Positions 3,494 through 42,926 of a stretch of DNA of 64,000 nucleotides are shown piece after piece (the stretch's first letter is position 1; each line of letters starts with the position of its first letter). Source of the stretch: Vulcanimicrobiota bacterium (lineage in GTDB: Bacteria > Vulcanimicrobiota > Xenobia > Xenobiales > JADMJV01); assembly GCA_050250895.1 (NCBI GenBank), contig JBFWNU010000001.1:2564891-2628890 (forward strand). The letters are read 5' to 3'. A program made the position numbers and the translations under genes. Under the pieces are notes generated by a model. That model did no database searches. It was not told where the DNA came from and worked only from the letters and a program-made list of their open reading frames with translations.

Positions 3494-4927
3494 CTAAAAG
3501 CAGGGCAGGCGAAGTTCGACCACCACGCCGTCGCGGTCCTCGCGATTGCGGATGTGGCACTCGCCGCCCACCTCGAGCACCATGGAAGAGACCACCGACA
3601 GCCCCAGACCCATGCCCGGCACCTGGCCGGTGAAGTGGCGTTCGCCCTGGTAATAGGGCTGAAAGGCCTGGCGCAGTTGCTCGGGCGAGAGGGTCACCCC
3701 GTCGTCGCGCACGGCGATGTCGACGGTAGAGTTCTTGCGCTGGGCCGTCAGCTCGATCGCGGGCGATTTTTCGGGATGGAACTTCTTGCTGTTTTGCATC
3801 AGTTCGAGCAGGGTCAGCTCGAGGGCTCGATCCGACAGATTGATGGCTCCCTTGAGAGGGGTCTCCAGGCAGCAACGTACGGGCTTGAGCTCAAGCTGGG
3901 CCGCCAGTTCTTGAGCCACCGACTCGAGGCGAACCAGCTCGAAACCTTCGCCGTCGGGCACGGCCGTGGGCGCCTGCAGATACGCCAGCACGTCGTCGAG
4001 TTCGCCTTTGAGCTCGTTGACCCCGTCCAGGGACATCTTGGCGAACTCGGCGATCTTGTCGGGGGTGAGCTTGTCGCCTCGATCGACGATGAAGGAGAGT
4101 CCCCAGATCATCTTGGTCAGAGGAGTGCGCAGTTTGTGGGCGATGAGGGCGTTGAAGCTCCAGACGCTGCGTTGGGAAGTCATCTGGGCGGTGACGTCGC
4201 GCAGTTGCAGCAGGCGCTCGGTGCGGCCGCGCACCGAGTGGACCATGTTCTTGACCTCGATGAAGGCGGCTCCGGCCATGCTCGACTCGGGGCGCACCAG
4301 CTGAAACACCTTCTCGGGCTTGAGGTTGGGCCAATCCGCCAGGGCGTCGTCGGGTGAGGGCGAGAACTGGCGCTGCAGATGGGGCAGCAGCTGGTGGCCT
4401 TCACTACCGGTGGGGAGCGAGAGGATGGTCCTGGATTTGGCGTTGGAGTAAAGGATGACTCCCTGGTCGTTGACCAGCACATAGCCTTCTTCGGCGTTAT
4501 CTACGACCCAGCTAAAACGGGCCCGCTCGTCGCGAATGCGGGCGTAGCGGTTGAGACGCGTGACGCTGGCAATTTGAGCCCGAAACTCGCTGGGCTTGAA
4601 GGGCTTCGAGATAAAGTCGTCGGCCCCGGCCAAGAGCCCGGCCACCCGCGATTCTTCGTCTTCGAGGGCCGTCACCATGATGACCGGCACCTCGGCCAGC
4701 ACTTCGTTCTCGCGCAGTTCACGACAGACCTGATTGCCGTCCTTGCCGGGCATGACCACGTCGAGCAAGATGAGATCAGGGGTCAACTCGAGGGCCTTGG
4801 CCAGCGCCTCGTCGCCGTCGCCCGCAAACTCGAGCCGGTACGGCTCGTTCTTGAGCAGGCTCTTCATCAAGAGACGTTCAGCCCGGTCGTCGTCGACGAT
4901 GAGGATCAACGGTTGCTCGAAAGTCAC
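3494..4927 (-). CDS. hybrid response regulator / sensor histidine kinase (REC-PAS-HisKA-HATPase)
   Basis: ILIVDD...LLDVVMPG...KPF receiver domain; AHKLRTPL H-box; DDG and GMGLGL G-boxes. Confidence 0.92.
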   Translation of the reverse strand: MTFEQPLILIVDDDRAERLLMKSLLKNEPYRLEFAGDGDEALAKALELTPDLILLDVVMPGKDGNQVCRELRENEVLAEVPVIMVTALEDEESRVAGLLAGADDFISKPFKPSEFRAQIASVTRLNRYARIRDERARFSWVVDNAEEGYVLVNDQGVILYSNAKSRTILSLPTGSEGHQLLPHLQRQFSPSPDDALADWPNLKPEKVFQLVRPESSMAGAAFIEVKNMVHSVRGRTERLLQLRDVTAQMTSQRSVWSFNALIAHKLRTPLTKMIWGLSFIVDRGDKLTPDKIAEFAKMSLDGVNELKGELDDVLAYLQAPTAVPDGEGFELVRLESVAQELAAQLELKPVRCCLETPLKGAINLSDRALELTLLELMQNSKKFHPEKSPAIELTAQRKNSTVDIAVRDDGVTLSPEQLRQAFQPYYQGERHFTGQVPGMGLGLSVVSSMVLEVGGECHIRNREDRDGVVVELRLPCF

Positions 4928-4996
4928 GCTTTACTGTCCTTTGCGTCGGTTCACTGCAGAAGGATTTGCGTTGGTCGGTTCGAGAAACGGACCACA

Positions 4997-6190
4997 ATGT
5001 CCAACGTCCCCTTCCTCCGGCAACTTCGCCTGCGAAATTTCTTGTCCTATCAGGACGAGCAGATTGAGTGTCGCGGTCTCAATGTCCTGATTGGAGCCAA
5101 CGGGTCAGGAAAGTCTAATTTACTGGAATGCCTGCGAATTCTGCAAGCCACGCCGGATGATTTGGCTGCCGTGATTCGGGAAGGTGGGGGAGTGGATGAC
5201 TGGATATCCCGCGCTCCGGGCGGACCGGGTGCGGCTTCAATCGAGGCGATTCTATCAGCCGACCACACCAGGGAAGAGTTTCGCCAGCGCTACCAGTTGG
5301 ACTTCACATCGGTGAGGGGGCGCCTGGAACTGACGGATGAGACCCTGGAGAACGAGCAGGCCTTACCAGGGCACGAGAGACCCTACTTTTTCTATCGTTA
5401 CCAGGGGGGAGACCCCGTGCTGAATGTCCGGGTGGCGAACGCCGAAGTGGTGCCACGCCGTTTGAAGCGCCAAAGCCTCAAGCCGGACCAGTCGATCTTT
5501 GCCCAACGGCGGGACCCCGAGCAGTATCCAGAAGTCAGCCGAATAGCGGAGCTATTCGCCGAGTTTCGCATTTATCGGGAACTAGGCATCGGACCGAGTG
5601 CCGGCTATCGCTATCCTCAAAAACTAGATCTTCCGAGCGACCAGCTGGAGGAGGATGGCTCGAACCTGGTGCTGGTGCTGGGCACTCTCCAGCATTTCGA
5701 TGCCTTCCGACGCATTGAACACGAGTTGAGCCGTTTCTATGAGGGCGCGGAACGTCTTCTGATAACCCCCGAGGCCGGCACTCTCGCTCTTTATCTGAAG
5801 GAAGCACATCTTTCCAGGCCCACGCCCGCGACCAGGCTGTCGGACGGAACCCTGAGGTTCTTATGCCTGCTCACCGTTCTTTGTCATCCCGACCCGCCCC
5901 CGGTGGTCGCGATTGAAGAGCCTGAACTCGGGCTTCATCCAGACGCGGTGCTCCAGATTGCAGATCTCATCGTCGAGGCGAGTCAGAGAACGCAGTTGTT
6001 CATTACGACTCACTCCGAGGCGTTCGTGTCGGCCCTCTCAGAACAGGTGGACGATGTGGTGGTCTGTGAGAAAATCAACGGATTGACTCGCCTCCGGAGG
6101 CTAGAGTCAGAGGCGCTTCGGCTCTGGCTGGAGCGCTACTCGCTTGGTGAGCTTTGGCGGAAGGGAGAACTGGGTGGCAACCCGGTTTAA
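4997..6190 (+). CDS. ABC-type AAA ATPase (AAA_21/AbiEii-like)
   Basis: LRNFLS, Walker A GANGSGKS, signature LSDGT, Walker B IEEPE, TTHS; start set at ATG 4997 (MSNVPF). Confidence 0.9.
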   Translation: MSNVPFLRQLRLRNFLSYQDEQIECRGLNVLIGANGSGKSNLLECLRILQATPDDLAAVIREGGGVDDWISRAPGGPGAASIEAILSADHTREEFRQRYQLDFTSVRGRLELTDETLENEQALPGHERPYFFYRYQGGDPVLNVRVANAEVVPRRLKRQSLKPDQSIFAQRRDPEQYPEVSRIAELFAEFRIYRELGIGPSAGYRYPQKLDLPSDQLEEDGSNLVLVLGTLQHFDAFRRIEHELSRFYEGAERLLITPEAGTLALYLKEAHLSRPTPATRLSDGTLRFLCLLTVLCHPDPPPVVAIEEPELGLHPDAVLQIADLIVEASQRTQLFITTHSEAFVSALSEQVDDVVVCEKINGLTRLRRLESEALRLWLERYSLGELWRKGELGGNPV

Positions 6191-32542: not shown

Positions 32543-32575
32543 AGAGTCGCTACCCTACCAGTGTTTCATGGTCTG

Positions 32576-32604
32576 TTGACAAGAAATATTTGCAGTGGTA
32601 TAGT
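32576..32604 (+). promoter_or_regulatory. strong sigma70 promoter of the permuted tRNA gene
   Basis: TTGACA-N17-TATAGT with an extended -10 TG. Confidence 0.9.
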
Positions 32605-32643
32605 GTGGTTATCGCGCCCTCACCGGTCGACCTTACATACTAA

Positions 32644-32724
32644 CTGACTGTTAATCAGAAGGTTGCGGGTTCGAGTCCCGTCTTCTCCGCCAACTTGGAG
32701 AAGTAGCTCAATTGGTAGAGCATC
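32644..32724 (+). tRNA. circularly permuted tRNA-Asn(GUU)-like gene (3' part 32644-32692, linker ACTT, 5' part 32697-32724)
   Basis: Anticodon arm CTGA-CTGTTAA-TCAG, T-arm GCGGG-TTCGAGT-CCCGT and CTTCTCC-G-CCA precede GGAGAAG-TA-GCTC-AATTGGTA-GAGC-AT; acceptor strands are 7/7 complementary. Confidence 0.8.
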
Positions 32725-32757
32725 GTATACCACGGTCCATCAACTTGCGCGAATCAG

Positions 32758-32783
32758 AAGCCCGGCTGCTAGCCGGGCTTTTT
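32758..32783 (+). terminator. intrinsic terminator of the permuted tRNA unit
   Basis: AAGCCCGGCT-gct-AGCCGGGCTT followed by a T-run. Confidence 0.9.
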
Positions 32784-32820
32784 GGTTTTACCTCGTCTGG
32801 TTGGTGACCAGGGCCATCAC

Positions 32821-33193
32821 CCCGCCGGCGTCGGTCATGCAGAGGCTGCGCGAGCATCGGATCCGCCAGCTCGAGACGCGCTTGGCCTTCGCCGGCACCT
32901 ACGTCGACCACGGCTTCGGTTTCACCACGCGCACCGGGGCGCCGCTCCATGAGAGCAACGTTCAGAAAGCGTTTCGGCGGGTTTGCAAGCGGGCCGTGCT
33001 AGCCCCGGTGCGACTCTACACACTCCGGCATACCTGCGCCACCCTGATGCTGCTCCGCCGGGTGCCGCCGAAAATCGTTTCGGAGTGGCTCGGCCACGCC
33101 AGCATCACGATCACGCTGGATGTCTACTCCCACGTCCTGCCCAGTATGCGGCAGGAGGCGGCGGCTGAGCTGGAGGCTACCGGCCTGTTTTAG
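32821..33193 (+). pseudogene. C-terminal fragment of a tyrosine recombinase/integrase
   Basis: LRHTCATLML, LGHASITITLDVYSHV; N-terminal half and catalytic Arg-I absent. Confidence 0.85.
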
Positions 33194-33194
33194 C

Positions 33195-33257
33195 CACGTG
33201 CTGCCGACGATGCAGCGTGAAGCGGCCAACGAGCTCGAGGCAACGGGGTTGTTTTGA
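33195..33257 (+). pseudogene. second, diverged integrase C-terminus (HVLPTMQREAANELEATGLF*)
   Basis: Immediately follows the first copy (HVLPSMRQEAAAELEATGLF*), with many synonymous changes. Confidence 0.8.
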
Positions 33258-33648: not shown

Positions 33649-33977
33649 TGCCTCAGAATAGACGAATGACTCATCCGTGTCAACAGTTGTAAAGCGTTTC
33701 TGCATATTTAAAAGCCCGCAAATATAGGCTTTGCGCCGATTTTTGACGAGTTTCTATTCTAAATCGTCGAAGGAATCATATTCTAAATCGCTATCCTGTT
33801 CCCCGCGCAACGCTAGCATCGCATCCCTAAAAGATCCAGTTGCTCTTGGGTCGTGGCTGCGGCTTGGGTGCGCCCGACGGTGGTGGGGGTGGCTTGTGAC
33901 CTCCTGCCTTCGCGCGGAGGTGGCGGTGGCGGCGCTGGGTCGCCCGATGGCTTGGGTGAGCTTGCGCTCGGCTGGGC

Positions 33978-34073
33978 CGGCCACGCCAGTACACGATCAC
34001 GCTGGATGTAATACTCTCACTTGCCCAGCATGCGGCAGGAGGCGGCGGCTGAGCTGGAGGCTACAGGCCTGTT
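33978..34073 (+). pseudogene. third, frameshifted integrase 3' remnant (direct repeat of about 33091-33190)
   Basis: Shares ATGCGGCAGGAGGCGGCGGCTGAGCTGGAGGCTAC exactly with copy 1. Confidence 0.85.
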
Positions 34074-34419: not shown

Positions 34420-34872
34420 TTAGAAGACCCAGTTCTGCTCTTTGATCATCTCCAAGCAAGTAATGGCCGTGACGCCGTGTTGACGGCACAGCACAGGTAT
34501 TTTTGGGCGATCCGCTGAGCCCCTTCGGCGCTCCTGGGTGACAACTTTAAAGCCCATCTCCTTAGCGTAGGCTACGACATGGGGATCGGCTTCGTTCTCG
34601 TGACCGACGACGAGCCCGGGATACTTGTTGATGATCTCTCGGACAATGTTCTCGACTTTGGCGTTGGTCGACATCACCATTTGGCTGTGCATGTCTACCC
34701 ACTTCTTAAGGTGATCGTCCTTTCGGCCCAACTCAATATGAACCGCCTTCACGATGTGGAAGCGCCCTTGATTCACAAGGTTCTGGACCTGGGTCCAGAA
34801 CTGGGGAAAATTCTGATGAGGATAGAGATCGTTTTCGGCGGTGATCAGTGCCGAAGCATCGACGCTATACAC
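34420..34872 (-). CDS. DUF4411-family PIN-like protein
   Basis: YSVDASALI...LYP...FPQFW...ADPHVVAYA...VVTQE...KIP-x-x-C; GTG start overlapping the upstream stop. Confidence 0.85.
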   Translation of the reverse strand: MYSVDASALITAENDLYPHQNFPQFWTQVQNLVNQGRFHIVKAVHIELGRKDDHLKKWVDMHSQMVMSTNAKVENIVREIINKYPGLVVGHENEADPHVVAYAKEMGFKVVTQERRRGSADRPKIPVLCRQHGVTAITCLEMIKEQNWVF

Positions 34873-36076
34873 TCCAAGCTCCCTTCTTCTCGAGCAGTTG
34901 TCGCATCTCACTGAAATGCTGGACCTTTGCCCCGAGGTACCCAGAGGCGCTCGAGAGAGTGATGGTTCTGGAGTCGAGAGCGTCGAAAACCAGTCGAGAG
35001 TAGGCGACGCCGTTGTAGGCGACTTTCCGCACGGCGTATCTCGGGCCACCTTCGCTTTCAGCAAGGTTCTGTCGGTGCTCACGGCGTTGGGCCCTATACT
35101 GGCTAACCTTGCGGCCGAATTCAGCTTGGGTCATTCGATGGTGGTCGAGCAGCCTTCTAACGATGACATCGCGACTAACGGAGAAACGATTCGCAACCGA
35201 CTTTATAACTTCGTCGGGCCAGCGATTAGCATCGTCATGGGCATTGACCTCCTCGTCCCTTTCTAGAACGCTCCAAGGCACCAGCAACTCAGCGGCAAAC
35301 GCGTTGCAATAGACCTCAATCTCTCTTTGCTCGGGGGGGAGCCTGGAGTTGTCGGTGGCTTCGGCGTGCAACCCGGACACTCTCATTAGGACGTGGCCCA
35401 ACTCGTGGGCCATCGAAAACAGACGGCCCAATGGAGGGTCTTGGGTATTCACAGCGATGGTGGGTAGAGGTGTTTCTGCAATACAGACGCCTCTAAAAAC
35501 ATCGAGGTCGATTTCAGGGATCTGAAAAACCAAGAGCCCAGCATCCTCAAGAGCCCTCGTCCATAGCGAGACCGCTTCGTATTGGCCTCTGCACTTAAGT
35601 TGGCTCTCGAGAGTTAGTCCGAGGCGGGTGCGAATTTCTCCGGTAACCCGCGGAATCTCCGCCGGACTCGAACTTATGATCTCTATGTCACCAAGAAGAA
35701 AGTCGGGTGGTTCTTCCTGCAATTCCTCGTAGAGTTCCAGTGCTGTCCGCCGTCGATTTCGGATTTCACGTAGAGCAAAACGTAACTTCGGGGGATAGTC
35801 TTGAATCACACCGGGTAACGTGCGAAAGTCCGTCACCCCAGGGTCTTCGATTGGAGGTTTTTCGAGATAAAAGAGGCCGATGGGTCGGTCGAAGACATGG
35901 GCAGCCTTGGTCAACTGATTAAAGGACGGACGAAGCTCACCAGCCTCGAACGCCCTCAGTCGTTCCGGCTTGACCCCGACCTTGGCCGAGGCCTGCTCGA
36001 TGGTATAGCCAGCCGTCTCCCTAGCCCAGGTTAAGAGGGCCGGTGTGATCAGAGCTTCCACCTTTTCTTTAGCCAC
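34865..36076 (-). CDS. XRE-HTH + ImmA/IrrE zinc metallopeptidase
   Basis: LTWARE...HTH; FSMAHELGH (HExxH); EVYCNAFAAELLVP. Confidence 0.92.
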   Translation of the reverse strand: MAKEKVEALITPALLTWARETAGYTIEQASAKVGVKPERLRAFEAGELRPSFNQLTKAAHVFDRPIGLFYLEKPPIEDPGVTDFRTLPGVIQDYPPKLRFALREIRNRRRTALELYEELQEEPPDFLLGDIEIISSSPAEIPRVTGEIRTRLGLTLESQLKCRGQYEAVSLWTRALEDAGLLVFQIPEIDLDVFRGVCIAETPLPTIAVNTQDPPLGRLFSMAHELGHVLMRVSGLHAEATDNSRLPPEQREIEVYCNAFAAELLVPWSVLERDEEVNAHDDANRWPDEVIKSVANRFSVSRDVIVRRLLDHHRMTQAEFGRKVSQYRAQRREHRQNLAESEGGPRYAVRKVAYNGVAYSRLVFDALDSRTITLSSASGYLGAKVQHFSEMRQLLEKKGAWSV

Positions 36077-37652: not shown

Positions 37653-38372
37653 AACTTCCCCCGGTCTAGCTCCCCCGCCCCGCCCGGCATAGCCGGCCGA
37701 AACCAGCACCACCAGGTCGTCGCCGGCCAGGGTCAGGCGATCCGAGTTGGAGAAGTAGTCGCGAGTCTCACGCAGCATCCGGGCCTCGAGCGCCTCGTAG
37801 GCCCGGCCCAGACTGACGGTGCGGCCCTCCTCTTGCGACACCCACAGCAGGCAACCGGGACAGCCGGCGTTGTAGGTCACCACCGAGGAGCGGGCCGGTT
37901 CGAATAACAAAATGGCCGTTTCGACCCGTTCACGAAAGCCCTGGCGGACCAGGTGTTCGAGTAACAGATAGGCGGCCAGGCCCGGGTCCGAGTCTTCTTG
38001 AAGCGAGGTCGTCAGCACGGCGAAGGCATCATCCGAGGGTCGGGCCAGGCTCTGGCCGTCGGCGTCGACCAGGCGAAGATAGGCCAGAGCGAAGCGACCC
38101 TGGCCAAGGTCGAGGGGGCGAAACCATTCCGGCCCAGCCCCGGGCACCACCTGATCGAGCAACGACAGTTCGAAGCGACCGGTAACCACCTGGCTGAGTT
38201 CTGCCGGTAGCGGACTCTGGATCTCTTCGCCGGACCTTCCCGGCGAGGTCTGGCGCACCGAAAAGCGCTGCACCAGCAGCACCGACCCGCAGTAGCTGCA
38301 GGTCACCTGTTGAGCGTCGCCCGGGTTGATGGGCGCGCCGCAACCCGGGCAATAGAGAGCGTGGAGCCTCAT
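37653..38372 (-). pseudogene. zinc-ribbon + SpoIIE/PP2C-like protein, truncated and fused in frame to the island gene
   Basis: CPGCGA...CSYCG; YNAG and LAGDDLVVLVSAG motifs, then an abrupt switch to unrelated sequence. Confidence 0.55.
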
Positions 38373-40800: not shown

Positions 40801-41493
40801 TCAGGCCATGTCCAGCGGCACGATGCGCGCTGTTGGGATCCGCGCGTCGACGATGGCTCGGGCCAGGTTGAACCAGGCGGCGGCCCGGTCCAGGATGGCG
40901 CTATCGGCGCTGGCAATCATGGCTGCGCAATCAGCCAGGAGGGGATCGGGGTCAGGGACCAGTTCGACCGTCCACGGCCAGCCTCGCTGGTCAGCCAGTT
41001 CGCGCACCAGAGCGGCCAGGCGTCCGCTGTTGGAGACGGGTTGATCGAATAACCAGTGAGCCTCGGTGGGGCCCGTGAACTCACCCACCAGAACCACCGC
41101 CTGGGCTGTCTCGTCGACCCGGCGGTAGGTCCCGTGCAGGCTGGCCATGTCGCGATAACAGCCATCTTGGGCTGCCAGGATGAAGCCTCCAGCCAGAGCC
41201 GCCTCGAGGGTGGTCAGCAGGTTGAAGCCGTCGATCCACAGACGAGAAGCGAGCCTGGTGCACTGGCGAGATAGGCGGGCCGCTCGCTCCTGCTCGGAAC
41301 AGGTGCAGCGGCTCACCGCGATGCGCTGGCGCTCGCGCAGTTGATGGTGGTCGCCCACGAGCTTGAGGGCCGACTTGCGAGCATAGCCGCGGCTCAAAAG
41401 CCAGCTGAGTTCGGCGGTGGCCGCCTGGAGCTCGGGCCAGGTCGAGGGGGCGAAGAGTTCTTCGTCCTCAGGGTGAGGCCCCCGGTGCCTCAT
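40801..41493 (-). CDS. DUF434-domain protein
   Basis: LLSRGY...ALKLVGDH, IDGFNLL, DGCYRDMAS, PVSNSG. Confidence 0.85.
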   Translation of the reverse strand: MRHRGPHPEDEELFAPSTWPELQAATAELSWLLSRGYARKSALKLVGDHHQLRERQRIAVSRCTCSEQERAARLSRQCTRLASRLWIDGFNLLTTLEAALAGGFILAAQDGCYRDMASLHGTYRRVDETAQAVVLVGEFTGPTEAHWLFDQPVSNSGRLAALVRELADQRGWPWTVELVPDPDPLLADCAAMIASADSAILDRAAAWFNLARAIVDARIPTARIVPLDMA

Positions 41494-42926
41494 TCGATAT
41501 AGACCGGATTGGAAAGGCCCAGAATGCGATCGTGGGCCAGAATCTCTTCCGGGGTCATCCCGAACGGCAGCCCGGTGGTGGCATGGTACTGGCGGACCAG
41601 CCCGGAATAGGCGTGGTCTTCGGCCACCGGGATGAACAGCTCCAGGCGCACGAAATCCTGACCCCTCAGCACGAAGGGCTGGTCCTGAGCTTTGCCCTGC
41701 ATGACCACGCCCTGGCTATCGACCACTCGGAGTTGGCATTCGCCGGCCCCGATCAGCTTGATTTCAAGCGGCGTTCCCCCGGGTAGGGTTTGGCCGGTGA
41801 CCACTTTGCCCTCGTGCTCGAAGTAGGCCATCGGGCCGTTGGGGCCCTCCGAGATGGAGGCTCCTCCGGCTTTGAGGGCGGCCAGAATGTCGGCTTCGGC
41901 GTTGCTTTGAGCATAGACCCAGGTGGTGGGGCCGCCCAGCTGCAGGAGGGGGTGGTCGGGGTCGGGCAGGGGCGGCTGATGGCGATCGCTGCCTCCCACC
42001 GCCGGGAGGCGACGTCCTGCACACAAGAGCTTGTGCCACAGCTCGAGCGAAACCCAGTTGCGGGTGGCCCAGGGCAAGTTCCAGACCTCGATGCAGTCGA
42101 CATCGTCCCAGTAGTCGTATTTCCAGTCGTCGTGAATCGGCTTGGGGTGGTTGACCACCCGCAGGGCACCGCCCTGGCGGGCGCTGGCCAGAGCCTGCTT
42201 GAGGCCCTCGAGATCGTCGAAGCGAAAGTCGATCCACTGGCCCGTGCCCAGGGCGTTGAAGTGACCTTTGTAGGTGGTCACCTCCTGGCCCAGGATCAGG
42301 GTCAGGCCCCAATCGCCCCTCATCTCGAGGTGGTGGGCGATAGTGTTGTGGTCGGTCACGGCCAGAAAATCGAGTTGCTTCTGGCGGGCCATCTGCAACA
42401 GTTCGTCGAGACTCCCCAGGGCATCGGAGTGGTGGGTGTGGCAGTGCAGGTCGCCCTTGAGCCAGCCCGGCCCTCGGCGGGGATTGTCCAGGTCAGGAGA
42501 CTGCGAACCGAGCCGGCGGCGGTCTTCGTCGCTGGCCCGAATCGAGAGGTGGACGGTGGTGGGCTCGCTCACCTGATAGCGGCCTAACAGAATCTTCCAG
42601 CGGCCGGCCTCGAGGGGCCCGGCCAGATAGCCGGGTGTGGCCGAAGAGGTGGCCACGTAGAACTCTTCCCGAGCCGCCCCGCTCCAGCCGCGAAAGCCCC
42701 GCAGACTGGGATAGTCGGTCAGTTCGGGTCCGCCCAGACCGATGTCGACCCGAGCCTGACCCTCGGCATAGTAGCTCACTTCGAGGCAGCGCACGCCATC
42801 GGGCAGGTCGATGGGAACCTCCACGAAGGCGGGCCCCTCGGGACGCAATTCTACTTCCAATTCCATTCTTAGCACGGGTGCCCACTTTGGCGCCCCGAGG
42901 CGGGCATCCTTTGGCGAGAGGTTCAC
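41490..42926 (-). CDS. PHP-domain (CehA/McbA-type) metallohydrolase
   Basis: GDLHCHTHHSD, AVTDHN, GQEVT, NHP, GGSDRH. Confidence 0.9.
   Translation of the reverse strand: MNLSPKDARLGAPKWAPVLRMELEVELRPEGPAFVEVPIDLPDGVRCLEVSYYAEGQARVDIGLGGPELTDYPSLRGFRGWSGAAREEFYVATSSATPGYLAGPLEAGRWKILLGRYQVSEPTTVHLSIRASDEDRRRLGSQSPDLDNPRRGPGWLKGDLHCHTHHSDALGSLDELLQMARQKQLDFLAVTDHNTIAHHLEMRGDWGLTLILGQEVTTYKGHFNALGTGQWIDFRFDDLEGLKQALASARQGGALRVVNHPKPIHDDWKYDYWDDVDCIEVWNLPWATRNWVSLELWHKLLCAGRRLPAVGGSDRHQPPLPDPDHPLLQLGGPTTWVYAQSNAEADILAALKAGGASISEGPNGPMAYFEHEGKVVTGQTLPGGTPLEIKLIGAGECQLRVVDSQGVVMQGKAQDQPFVLRGQDFVRLELFIPVAEDHAYSGLVRQYHATTGLPFGMTPEEILAHDRILGLSNPVYIE

Follow-up and report, generated by a model that had tools for sequence, protein, structure and literature searches.

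We examined a permuted tRNA-Asn-like gene in a 64,000-nt (64-kb) stretch of a Vulcanimicrobiota bacterium contig (hereafter the window; all window coordinates are counted from its first letter). The RNA that this locus is predicted to encode has a body that is a complete tRNA-Asn in permuted order, with four arms, an A15:U48 pair, G73 and CCA. We consider it likely that the RNA is a tRNA mimic of the YrlA lineage, a group of bacterial Y RNAs, and it is best read as an orphan YrlA-type tRNA-Asn mimic. A role for this RNA as a supplier of tRNA for translation is unlikely.

Direct reading of the sequence places tRNA-Asn positions 28-76 at 32644-32692, ahead of the 5′ part. This stretch contains, in order, CTGA-CTGTTAA-TCAG-A, AGGTT, the T arm, CTTCTCC, G73 and CCA. 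Four nucleotides (ACTT, 32693-32696) separate it from tRNA positions 1-27/28 (32697-32724), made up of GGAGAAG and TA, then the D arm, then ATC. Both the D-loop GG and the T-loop TTCGA are present, and the Levitt pair is A15:U48. ARAGORN calls no tRNA at the locus in its native order; re-joining 32697-32723 to 32644-32692 gives a 76-mer that it calls as tRNA-Asn (GTT). An earlier annotation made from the DNA alone (the sequence-only reading) had placed the permuted parts correctly to the base, and its account of the joined halves as a canonical 76-mer agrees with the ARAGORN call.

Judged by its sequence signals, the locus is a stand-alone transcription unit for a small RNA with its own promoter and terminator (Table 1), as had been claimed from the letters. 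A promoter scan returned three promoter-like sites in 2.5 kb against 0.5 expected, and a predicted size range of ~140-173 nt was taken for the transcript. The predicted start (~32611) on one side and the hairpin of the terminator (from 32756) on the other bracket the terminal helix (32612-32617/32747-32752) almost exactly. For the entire transcript the folding energy is -65.2 kcal/mol (z -4.55), a value equalled by none of 200 shuffles. Its minimum-energy fold contains all three of the nested leader/trailer helices that the sequence-only reading had described. The leader-trailer duplex alone folds at -15.6 kcal/mol (z -3.4) and was equalled by one of 200 trailer shuffles. The arrangement described from the letters is thus borne out and not down to chance.

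For bacterial YrlA RNAs we draw on parts of two papers (Chen 2014, PMC4201824; Wang 2018, bioRxiv 10.1101/312249). YrlA's T, AS and D stem-loops mimic tRNA, and a 'less conserved' V stem-loop lies upstream of T and starts after a YUAY word (Chen 2014). YrlA genes are nearly all within 4 kb of rsr and on the same strand, and a GNCGAAN0-1G motif near the YrlA 5′ end is the proposed binding site of Rsr (Chen 2014). In Mycobacterium smegmatis, RNase P cleaves the 7-bp YrlA acceptor stem, the addition of CA yields CCA, and Rsr retains both halves (Chen 2014). A crystal structure revealed a tRNA-like fold in which the upstream element was named a long variable loop, and YrlA was likened to circularly permuted pre-tRNAs (Wang 2018). 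Permuted topology, tRNA mimicry, RNase P cleavage and a CCA end are thus already in print for YrlA. The sequence-only reading had presented a circularly permuted tRNA gene in a bacterium as the novelty; this was overstated, because the permuted topology is a published YrlA hallmark.

YrlA (RF02553) is the only Rfam family that matched the locus with an E value far below 1 (38.8 bits, E 4e-7), in a comparison that the sequence-only reading had proposed. The match aligns 32658-32724 to YrlA model positions 24-84, which cover the T arm, the acceptor loop and the D arm. The order of T arm, closed acceptor stem-loop and D arm is found both in this alignment and in the full-length alignment to R1, a core model built without the window (78.3 bits, a score that we read as a sign of tRNA-Asn-like descent). 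The window RNA also has the YrlA feature of ends that pair in a long stem with internal loops, here as three nested helices. A UUAC, which fits the YUAY word, stands at 32633-32636 directly after the middle helix, as in relatives (GGGTTACTTC); it is 9 nt from the hairpin core GACTG (from 32646) in the window and 3 nt from it in relatives.

Relatives come from a scan of species-representative genomes (one per species) with a pattern for three elements (hairpin loop, T loop and D arm) and no constraint on the acceptor region. The scan gave at least 119 loci, and the window's own genome was not among the matches listed. Permuted-type RNAs were picked by acceptor complementarity and then by eye, as those that lack a D arm on the upstream side and an anticodon arm on the downstream side and whose acceptor hairpin is closed and self-complementary. 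This yielded 27 RNAs in 26 loci among the matches listed. About three-quarters of the loci listed are tandem pairs, in which an ordinary tRNA-Asn gene is closely followed by another tRNA; six of the other 93 loci were re-read, and all six are tandem tRNA pairs.

The 27 RNAs are spread over several higher taxa, which we grouped by hand from record titles. They include Alphaproteobacteria (Brevundimonas, Hyphomonadaceae, Rhizobiaceae, Roseibium and Bradyrhizobium), Bacteroidota (Rapidithrix, Saprospiraceae, Prevotella, Ginsengibacter and Sphingobacteriales), Actinomycetes (Stackebrandtia, Streptomyces, Salininema and Halostreptopolyspora), Paenibacillus and Cohnella, a Fibrobacter metagenome-assembled genome (MAG) and a Saccharibacteria MAG. 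The YrlA regions and flanks of a Prevotella MAG (L081) and the Fibrobacter MAG (L112) are identical save one acceptor-loop base, and the two MAGs are assigned to different phyla. This identity points to recent transfer or a binning mix-up.

Structure is conserved across these relatives. Across the 27 RNAs, 97.8% of cells are paired, which none of 500 shuffles reached, and all seven acceptor pairs vary on both sides. The Levitt pair 15:48 covaries, with 19 G:C, 4 A:U and no other combination among 23 RNAs (alignment A2). Bases that make tertiary contacts are, to judge from these alignments, under selection in the family. The leader-trailer duplex was matched by at most 4 of 200 shuffles in 23 of the 27 RNAs, and those 23 have the window's layout of terminal helix, internal loop and upper helix. 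The exceptions are L005 and L099 (9 of 200 shuffles each) and L092 and L094, which fail within the 38-nt trailer examined. Helix sequences are wholly different between groups of relatives, and on their inner side the helices end too unevenly for a flank model from a full-length alignment anchored on the terminal helix. The bases beside the core of the hairpin pattern (T and C before it, G after it) are identical in 27 of 27, the loop itself being set by the pattern. The break point after the D arm, the CUGUUAA hairpin, the closed acceptor stem and the paired ends are common to the window and all 27 RNAs. Homologs that were only random truncations of tRNA arrays, an outcome the sequence-only reading had named as telling against it, are not what we found, because acceptor pairing, Levitt covariation and paired ends are conserved among the relatives.

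These relatives also place the window's Rfam score in context. Nine CUGUUAA-type copies in eight loci (six with Rsr alongside, one without and one not tested) scored 36.5-48.1 bits on YrlA, and the window's sub-threshold score is therefore typical of the subgroup. The CUGUUAA copy of a Rhizobiaceae locus (L021) scored 73.8 bits over the full length of YrlA and reaches the gathering score, with its hairpin as an insertion between model positions 23 and 24. This Rsr-linked RNA has the core nearest to the window's among the matches listed (80% identity). Apart from the window, only L021 and a Roseibium locus (L042) among the same matches retain G-CCA in the loop of the acceptor hairpin (GCCAACTAT in L021, GCCAACTT in the window); the other 24 of the 26 loci have no CCA there. 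With its 4-5 bp anticodon stem, 7-bp acceptor stem, G73 and encoded CCA, the window copy is more tRNA-like than any of the matches listed.

The gene for Rsr (Ro60) adjoins the RNA in 21 of the 26 related loci. Fourteen were recognised by the Pfam domains TROVE or vWA_Ro60 (E ≤1e-8), and seven more by tblastn with the Rsr proteins of other loci. In four of the five loci with no Rsr in view, the RNA lies within ~1.3 kb of the edge of the stored 8-kb block. RtcB was found in five loci, and RlaP, other RNA ligases, polynucleotide kinase-phosphatase and WYL/WCX regulators are also present around relatives. The relatives themselves are YrlA-type Y RNAs. The sequence-only reading was right to regard the absence of an adjacent ro/rsr gene as unusual. 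It had left three identities for the RNA side by side: a two-piece or circularised tRNA, a tRNA decoy, and a Y-RNA-like mimic that keeps its anticodon arm. The last of these fits the 27 RNAs, their rsr linkage and the YrlA match, and maturation to a normal tRNA found no support.

Other features recur at the relatives' loci. A WYL and/or WCX-domain gene stands beside the YrlA-rsr unit in L004, L013, L018, L028, L047, L051, L088 and L099 (Paenibacillus/Cohnella and Bacteroidota), and its product is likely a regulator of RNA-repair loci. Ordinary tRNA genes occur in or beside rsr-YrlA-rtcB loci; they include His, Pro, Gln, Ile and Trp tRNAs, and L094 has a 12-gene array. Arrays of 2-5 YrlA-like paralogs are frequent at rsr loci. 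All paralogs in these arrays start with a G(G/A)GTTACTTCG-like word, and their upstream hairpins vary. That each paralog mimics the anticodon loop of another tRNA is not supported as a rule: two fit (the second copies of L042, CUACGAA, and of L021, UUGUGGA), and most other hairpins are irregular. ARAGORN labels seven YrlA-type RNAs as tRNA-Asn (gtt): it mistakes the leader for an acceptor and D arm and reads the hairpin as an anticodon arm. YrlA-type RNAs in public genomes may be mis-annotated as tRNA-Asn genes.

Several results weigh against YrlA membership of the window RNA. The 47 open reading frames scanned across the window contain no TROVE, vWA_Ro60 or RtcB domain, and tblastn of the window with eight Rsr, three RtcB and one RlaP proteins gave a best E value of 0.08. 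The window copy thereby departs from the close rsr linkage of nearly all YrlAs in the part of Chen 2014 cited above. The GNCGAAN0-1G motif is not at the homologous place after the terminal helix, where inspection found CCTCACC and relatives have GGCGAATG or GTCGTAG-like words. The window's sole near match, GTCGAC (5/6 to GNCGAA, and not followed by G), is found 8 nt downstream of that place, within the middle helix. Leader and trailer are just ~45-55% identical to those of any relative, so homology of the flanks rests on architecture, not sequence. Model R1 scores ordinary tandem tRNA pairs at up to 76.2 bits and thus shows tRNA-Asn-like descent, not YrlA membership; we did not use it as a membership test. 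The window also falls below the Rfam YrlA gathering cut-off (38.8 versus 69 bits), a weak test here because the nine CUGUUAA-type copies are missed too. Finally, the family was sampled with a window-derived pattern that demands the CUGUUAA loop, so its counts apply to YrlAs of this subtype. Since the window has neither the Rsr motif at its usual place nor an rsr neighbourhood, we file its RNA as a YrlA-type tRNA mimic and a variant, not as a proven Y RNA.

The missing motif and the missing rsr and rtcB genes in 64 kb would also be expected of an Rsr-independent tRNA-Asn look-alike at the edge of a mobile island. RNase P would open such an RNA to give a two-piece molecule that ends in CCA. This molecule would be charged by asparaginyl-tRNA synthetase (AsnRS), or would serve as decoy or sponge and capture enzymes or toxins that recognise the anticodon loop of tRNA-Asn. 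We regard this as a live alternative, if an unlikely one, and it differs from our best reading in the partner only. The strong promoter and the terminator of the unit are consistent with it, as are the integrase remnants and the low-G+C island (with its DUF4411 and HTH-M78 proteins) that begin right after the terminator. The RNA has retained GUU in a loop of 7 nt above a stem of 4-5 bp, as well as G73 and a CCA that the gene encodes; GUU and G73 (with the encoded CCA) are presumably identity elements for AsnRS. A UGU-containing 7-nt loop is read by the queuine-inserting enzyme. The invariant bases beside the hairpin core in the 27 relatives, around a pattern-fixed loop, fit the same idea. However, 21 of 26 loci with this hairpin are rsr-linked, so the hairpin does not imply independence of Rsr, and an rsr gene could sit elsewhere in the genome. 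The extra stem at position 26/27 would, moreover, probably hinder use on the ribosome. The window copy may still work with an Rsr from another part of the genome, or may act on its own, as a look-alike of tRNA-Asn.

Immediately after the terminator come three partial copies of a tyrosine-integrase gene's 3′ end (Table 1). A C-terminal fragment of 130 aa makes up the first copy (Pfam Phage_integrase, profile positions 92-169 of 172). Two of the copies agree at 96% over 52 nt, and the agreement of the third is 69%. These remnants suggest repeated insertion of related elements at this spot. The G+C content falls to 52-58% between ~33000 and 37100, compared with ~64% elsewhere. Within this stretch, genes for a DUF4411 protein and a protein with HTH and M78-peptidase domains overlap; the latter matches the RmrA, CapP and spr1629-antitoxin models. 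The two resemble a toxin-antitoxin or defence-regulator pair carried on the remnant of an island. Elsewhere in the window are an AAA_21/AAA_15 ATPase (AbiEii/OLD-like) and a DUF434-DUF5616 protein beside a PHP-domain protein, and no evidence links the ATPase or the DUF434-DUF5616 protein to the permuted RNA.

Table 1. Features of the permuted tRNA-Asn-like unit, its surroundings in the window, and RNA genes at related loci (L-numbered)
Feature	Position	Strand	Basis or detail
Sigma-70-type promoter, TTGACA, 17-nt spacer with TG (extended -10), TATAGT	32576-32604	+	11/12 consensus matches
Predicted primary transcript, ~173 nt	32611-32783	+	start inferred from -10 box, end from terminator
Terminal helix, 5′ strand TCGCGC	32612-32617	+	pairs 32747-32752; minimum-energy fold
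Middle helix, 5′ strand GGT-C-GACC	32625-32632	+	pairs 32734-32741 around one C/C mismatch; contains GTCGAC
Inner helix, 5′ strand ATAC	32637-32640	+	pairs GTAT 32725-32728; replaces YrlA 'anticodon-stem' helix
Anticodon arm (tRNA positions 28-43), stem CTGA/TCAG, loop CTGTTAA	32644-32659	+	matches YrlA 'V' stem-loop; model R1 aligns arm to family hairpin
Variable loop AGGTT (44-48) and T arm GCGGG-TTCGAGT-CCCGT (49-65)	32660-32681	+	U48 pairs A15
Closed acceptor stem: CTTCTCC (66-72), 8-nt loop G-CCA-ACTT (32689-32696), GGAGAAG (1-7)	32682-32703	+	sequence, fold, ARAGORN
Predicted RNase P site	between 32696 and 32697	+	inferred from M. smegmatis YrlA (part of Chen 2014, PMC4201824)
U8, A9, D arm GCTC-AATTGGTA-GAGC, positions 26-28 (ATC)	32704-32724	+	sequence, Rfam alignment, ARAGORN
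Trailer, 3′ strands GTAT 32725-32728, GGTC-C-ATC 32734-32741, GCGCGA 32747-32752; AACTT before the last	32725-32752	+	fold
Intrinsic terminator, 12-bp stem, 3-nt loop, then T run	32756-32787 (32756-32782 in the scan)	+	terminator scan
AAA_21/AAA_15 ATPase, AbiEii/OLD-like	4379-6190		
Tyrosine-integrase gene 3′ end, first partial copy	32801-33193		
Tyrosine-integrase gene 3′ end, second partial copy	33202-33253		
Tyrosine-integrase gene 3′ end, third partial copy	33973-34073		
DUF4411 protein	34420-35082	-	overlaps HTH + M78-peptidase protein
HTH + M78-peptidase protein	34865-36076	-	overlaps DUF4411 protein
DUF434-DUF5616 protein	40801-41493		beside PHP-domain protein
PHP-domain protein	41490-42926		
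L021 RNA (Rhizobiaceae)	L021 2673-2808		
ARAGORN tRNA-Asn (gtt) miscalls	L001 7138-7212; L005 4247-4318; L017 3844-3912; L033 6798-6867		ARAGORN
ARAGORN tRNA-Asn (gtt) miscalls, remainder	L047 3875-3946; L092 191-280; L098 617-694		ARAGORN
Ordinary tRNA genes in or beside rsr-YrlA-rtcB loci	L004 2354-2615; L021 2816-3150; L033 6542-6788; L094 5931-7281		
Arrays of YrlA-like paralogs at rsr loci	L013 4169-5884; L047 3717-4395; L018 5089-5427; L064 99-582; L021 2673-3787		

Insertion of islands at tRNA genes is frequent and gives rise to second copies of the 3′ parts of those genes. This tendency, together with the integrase-gene remnants directly downstream, raises the prospect that the locus is debris: a collapsed or truncated tRNA-Asn tandem, a by-product of integration at a tRNA-Asn attachment site, or an assembly error. 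Short-spaced tandem tRNA pairs are indeed common and make up most of the scan matches listed. A blastn search with 32560-32800 against phage and plasmid collections found no place with 80% query coverage, and the best matches listed are a tRNA-Asn closely followed by another tRNA, or are unannotated. We nevertheless judge a debris origin very unlikely. The same architecture occurs in 27 RNAs at 26 other loci, the leader/trailer pairing beats 199 of 200 shuffles, promoter start and terminator bracket the terminal helix, and there is no repeat of either end of the RNA to mark the border of an island. A 17-nt match to the acceptor junction (37742-37758) was considered as such a border and rejected, as it holds a 12-nt exact core only and we estimate that ~10 such repeats would occur by chance in 18 kb. 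The collapsed tandem of intact tRNAs that the sequence-only reading had raised as a threat to its own claim is not what the window contains, because across its 64 kb ARAGORN found no tRNA and Rfam nothing at gathering score.

A true circularly permuted tRNA-Asn gene of the Cyanidioschyzon or Thermofilum type would be ligated or circularised at 27/28 and opened at the acceptor loop to yield a translating tRNA. The joined halves do form a canonical 76-nt tRNA-Asn by ARAGORN, and the acceptor loop consists of G-CCA plus the 4-nt linker, as such a gene would have. But inspection of the fold found no bulge-helix-bulge at the junction. Next to the 4-bp ATAC/GTAT helix, only the leader carries a bulge (3 nt, TAA); on the trailer side there is instead a 4x5 internal loop, at the far side of the helix, so symmetric cuts would not yield the 27/28 join. 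The relatives argue in the same direction, as an ordinary tRNA-Asn gene stands beside the permuted RNA in five related loci, where the permuted RNA is thus not the cell's tRNA-Asn, and as most of them lack CCA in the loop. A splicing endonuclease is not known in bacteria according to the part of Wang 2018 (bioRxiv 10.1101/312249) that we draw on. On this balance a translating permuted tRNA is highly improbable.

Read as an orphan YrlA-type mimic, the transcript would fold into a tRNA-like body composed of the anticodon-like hairpin, the T arm, the closed acceptor stem and the D arm. The three-part stem formed by its 5′ and 3′ ends would hold this body shut. By analogy with M. smegmatis YrlA, RNase P probably cleaves at the 8-nt acceptor loop, with U32696 and G32697 on either side of the cut. 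At this predicted site an acceptor stem of 7 bp stacks on a T stem of 5 bp, position -1 is U and GCCA stands opposite. The cut would leave two halves kept together by the acceptor stem and the end stem, and the 5′ half would end in CCAACUU, which could be trimmed to CCA. If the genome encodes Rsr, whose binding involves the end stem in relatives, the RNA may act with it in RNA repair or decay, as the family suggests.

Two aspects of this RNA may be new. One is an orphan copy that has the full tRNA-Asn complement and no Ro module. The other is that the 'variable arm' of a widespread YrlA subgroup may be, by its sequence, a conserved tRNA-Asn anticodon arm. In the parts of Chen 2014 and Wang 2018 that we draw on, the hairpin is treated as a variable arm, and none of the other YrlA papers listed takes it up in its title or opening abstract lines. 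The supplementary tables and alignments of Chen 2014 may already contain the CUGUUAA hairpin or orphan copies. Both points can be joined in a speculative reading that we hold to be improbable. In it, the YrlA variable arm would be the anticodon arm of tRNA-Asn, retained as CUGUUAA with a stem of 3-5 bp, and these Y RNAs would be whole permuted tRNA-Asn molecules with a Ro-binding stem inserted at 26/27. The window copy would be the extreme case, freed from Rsr, keeping GUU, G73 and CCA, opened by RNase P into a two-piece look-alike, and either charged or modified like tRNA-Asn or soaking up factors directed at the anticodon loop.

The role of the tRNA-like half of bacterial Y RNAs is still open in the portions of the two papers considered here (Chen 2014, PMC4201824; Wang 2018, bioRxiv 10.1101/312249). 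An orphan with its own promoter, no Ro-binding motif and all the parts of tRNA-Asn amounts to a natural experiment: its expression and processing, if they occur, would mean that the tRNA-like module has a job of its own. The anticodon-loop hairpin in relatives also opens questions about G34 modification, AsnRS recognition, and cleavage and repair with RtcB. For annotation, such RNAs matter in two ways: ARAGORN miscalls seven of them, and the Rfam cut-off misses the window copy and the nine scored copies.

Among known systems, the permuted tRNA genes of Cyanidioschyzon merolae and Thermofilum pendens, as far as the sources we draw on describe them, resemble the window gene in that the 3′ half comes first, the acceptor stem starts out as a closed loop, and leader and trailer pair. 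They differ in that their precursors have a bulge-helix-bulge that is cut by splicing endonuclease before ligation into a working tRNA, a motif that the window RNA lacks. Two-piece (permuted) transfer-messenger RNA (tmRNA) is likewise a bacterial, permuted, tRNA-like RNA of two paired pieces with a CCA end. It has a tag reading frame and pseudoknots, whereas the window RNA has neither and keeps an anticodon arm. Assignment to two-piece tmRNA was rejected (Rfam tmRNA_permuted, 17 bits versus a cut-off of 47; no tmRNA by ARAGORN).

The closest likeness is to YrlA (RF02553; Salmonella, M. smegmatis, Rhizobium and others). YrlA and the window RNA share the order of T arm, closed acceptor and D arm, a stem-loop ('V') upstream of the T arm, 5′ and 3′ ends paired as a long stem, and conserved tertiary-contact bases including the Levitt pair. 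M. smegmatis YrlA also has a 7-bp acceptor stem, and RNase P cuts it there (Chen 2014, in part). The window differs in that no rsr was found within ~31 kb either side and in having its own promoter and terminator. It differs, too, in its 4-5 bp hairpin stem and its encoded G-CCA in the loop, so that its parts sum to a complete tRNA-Asn. Within the family, the L021 RNA has GGCGAATG (the Rsr motif), is flanked by rsr and rtcB and attains the gathering score of Rfam, unlike the window copy. L021 and the related L042 RNA nonetheless share with the window the CUGUUAA hairpin, an identical T-arm stretch (GCGGGTTCGAGTCCCGTC), G-CCA-ACT in the acceptor loop, and ACTTG or CCTTG before the terminal helix.

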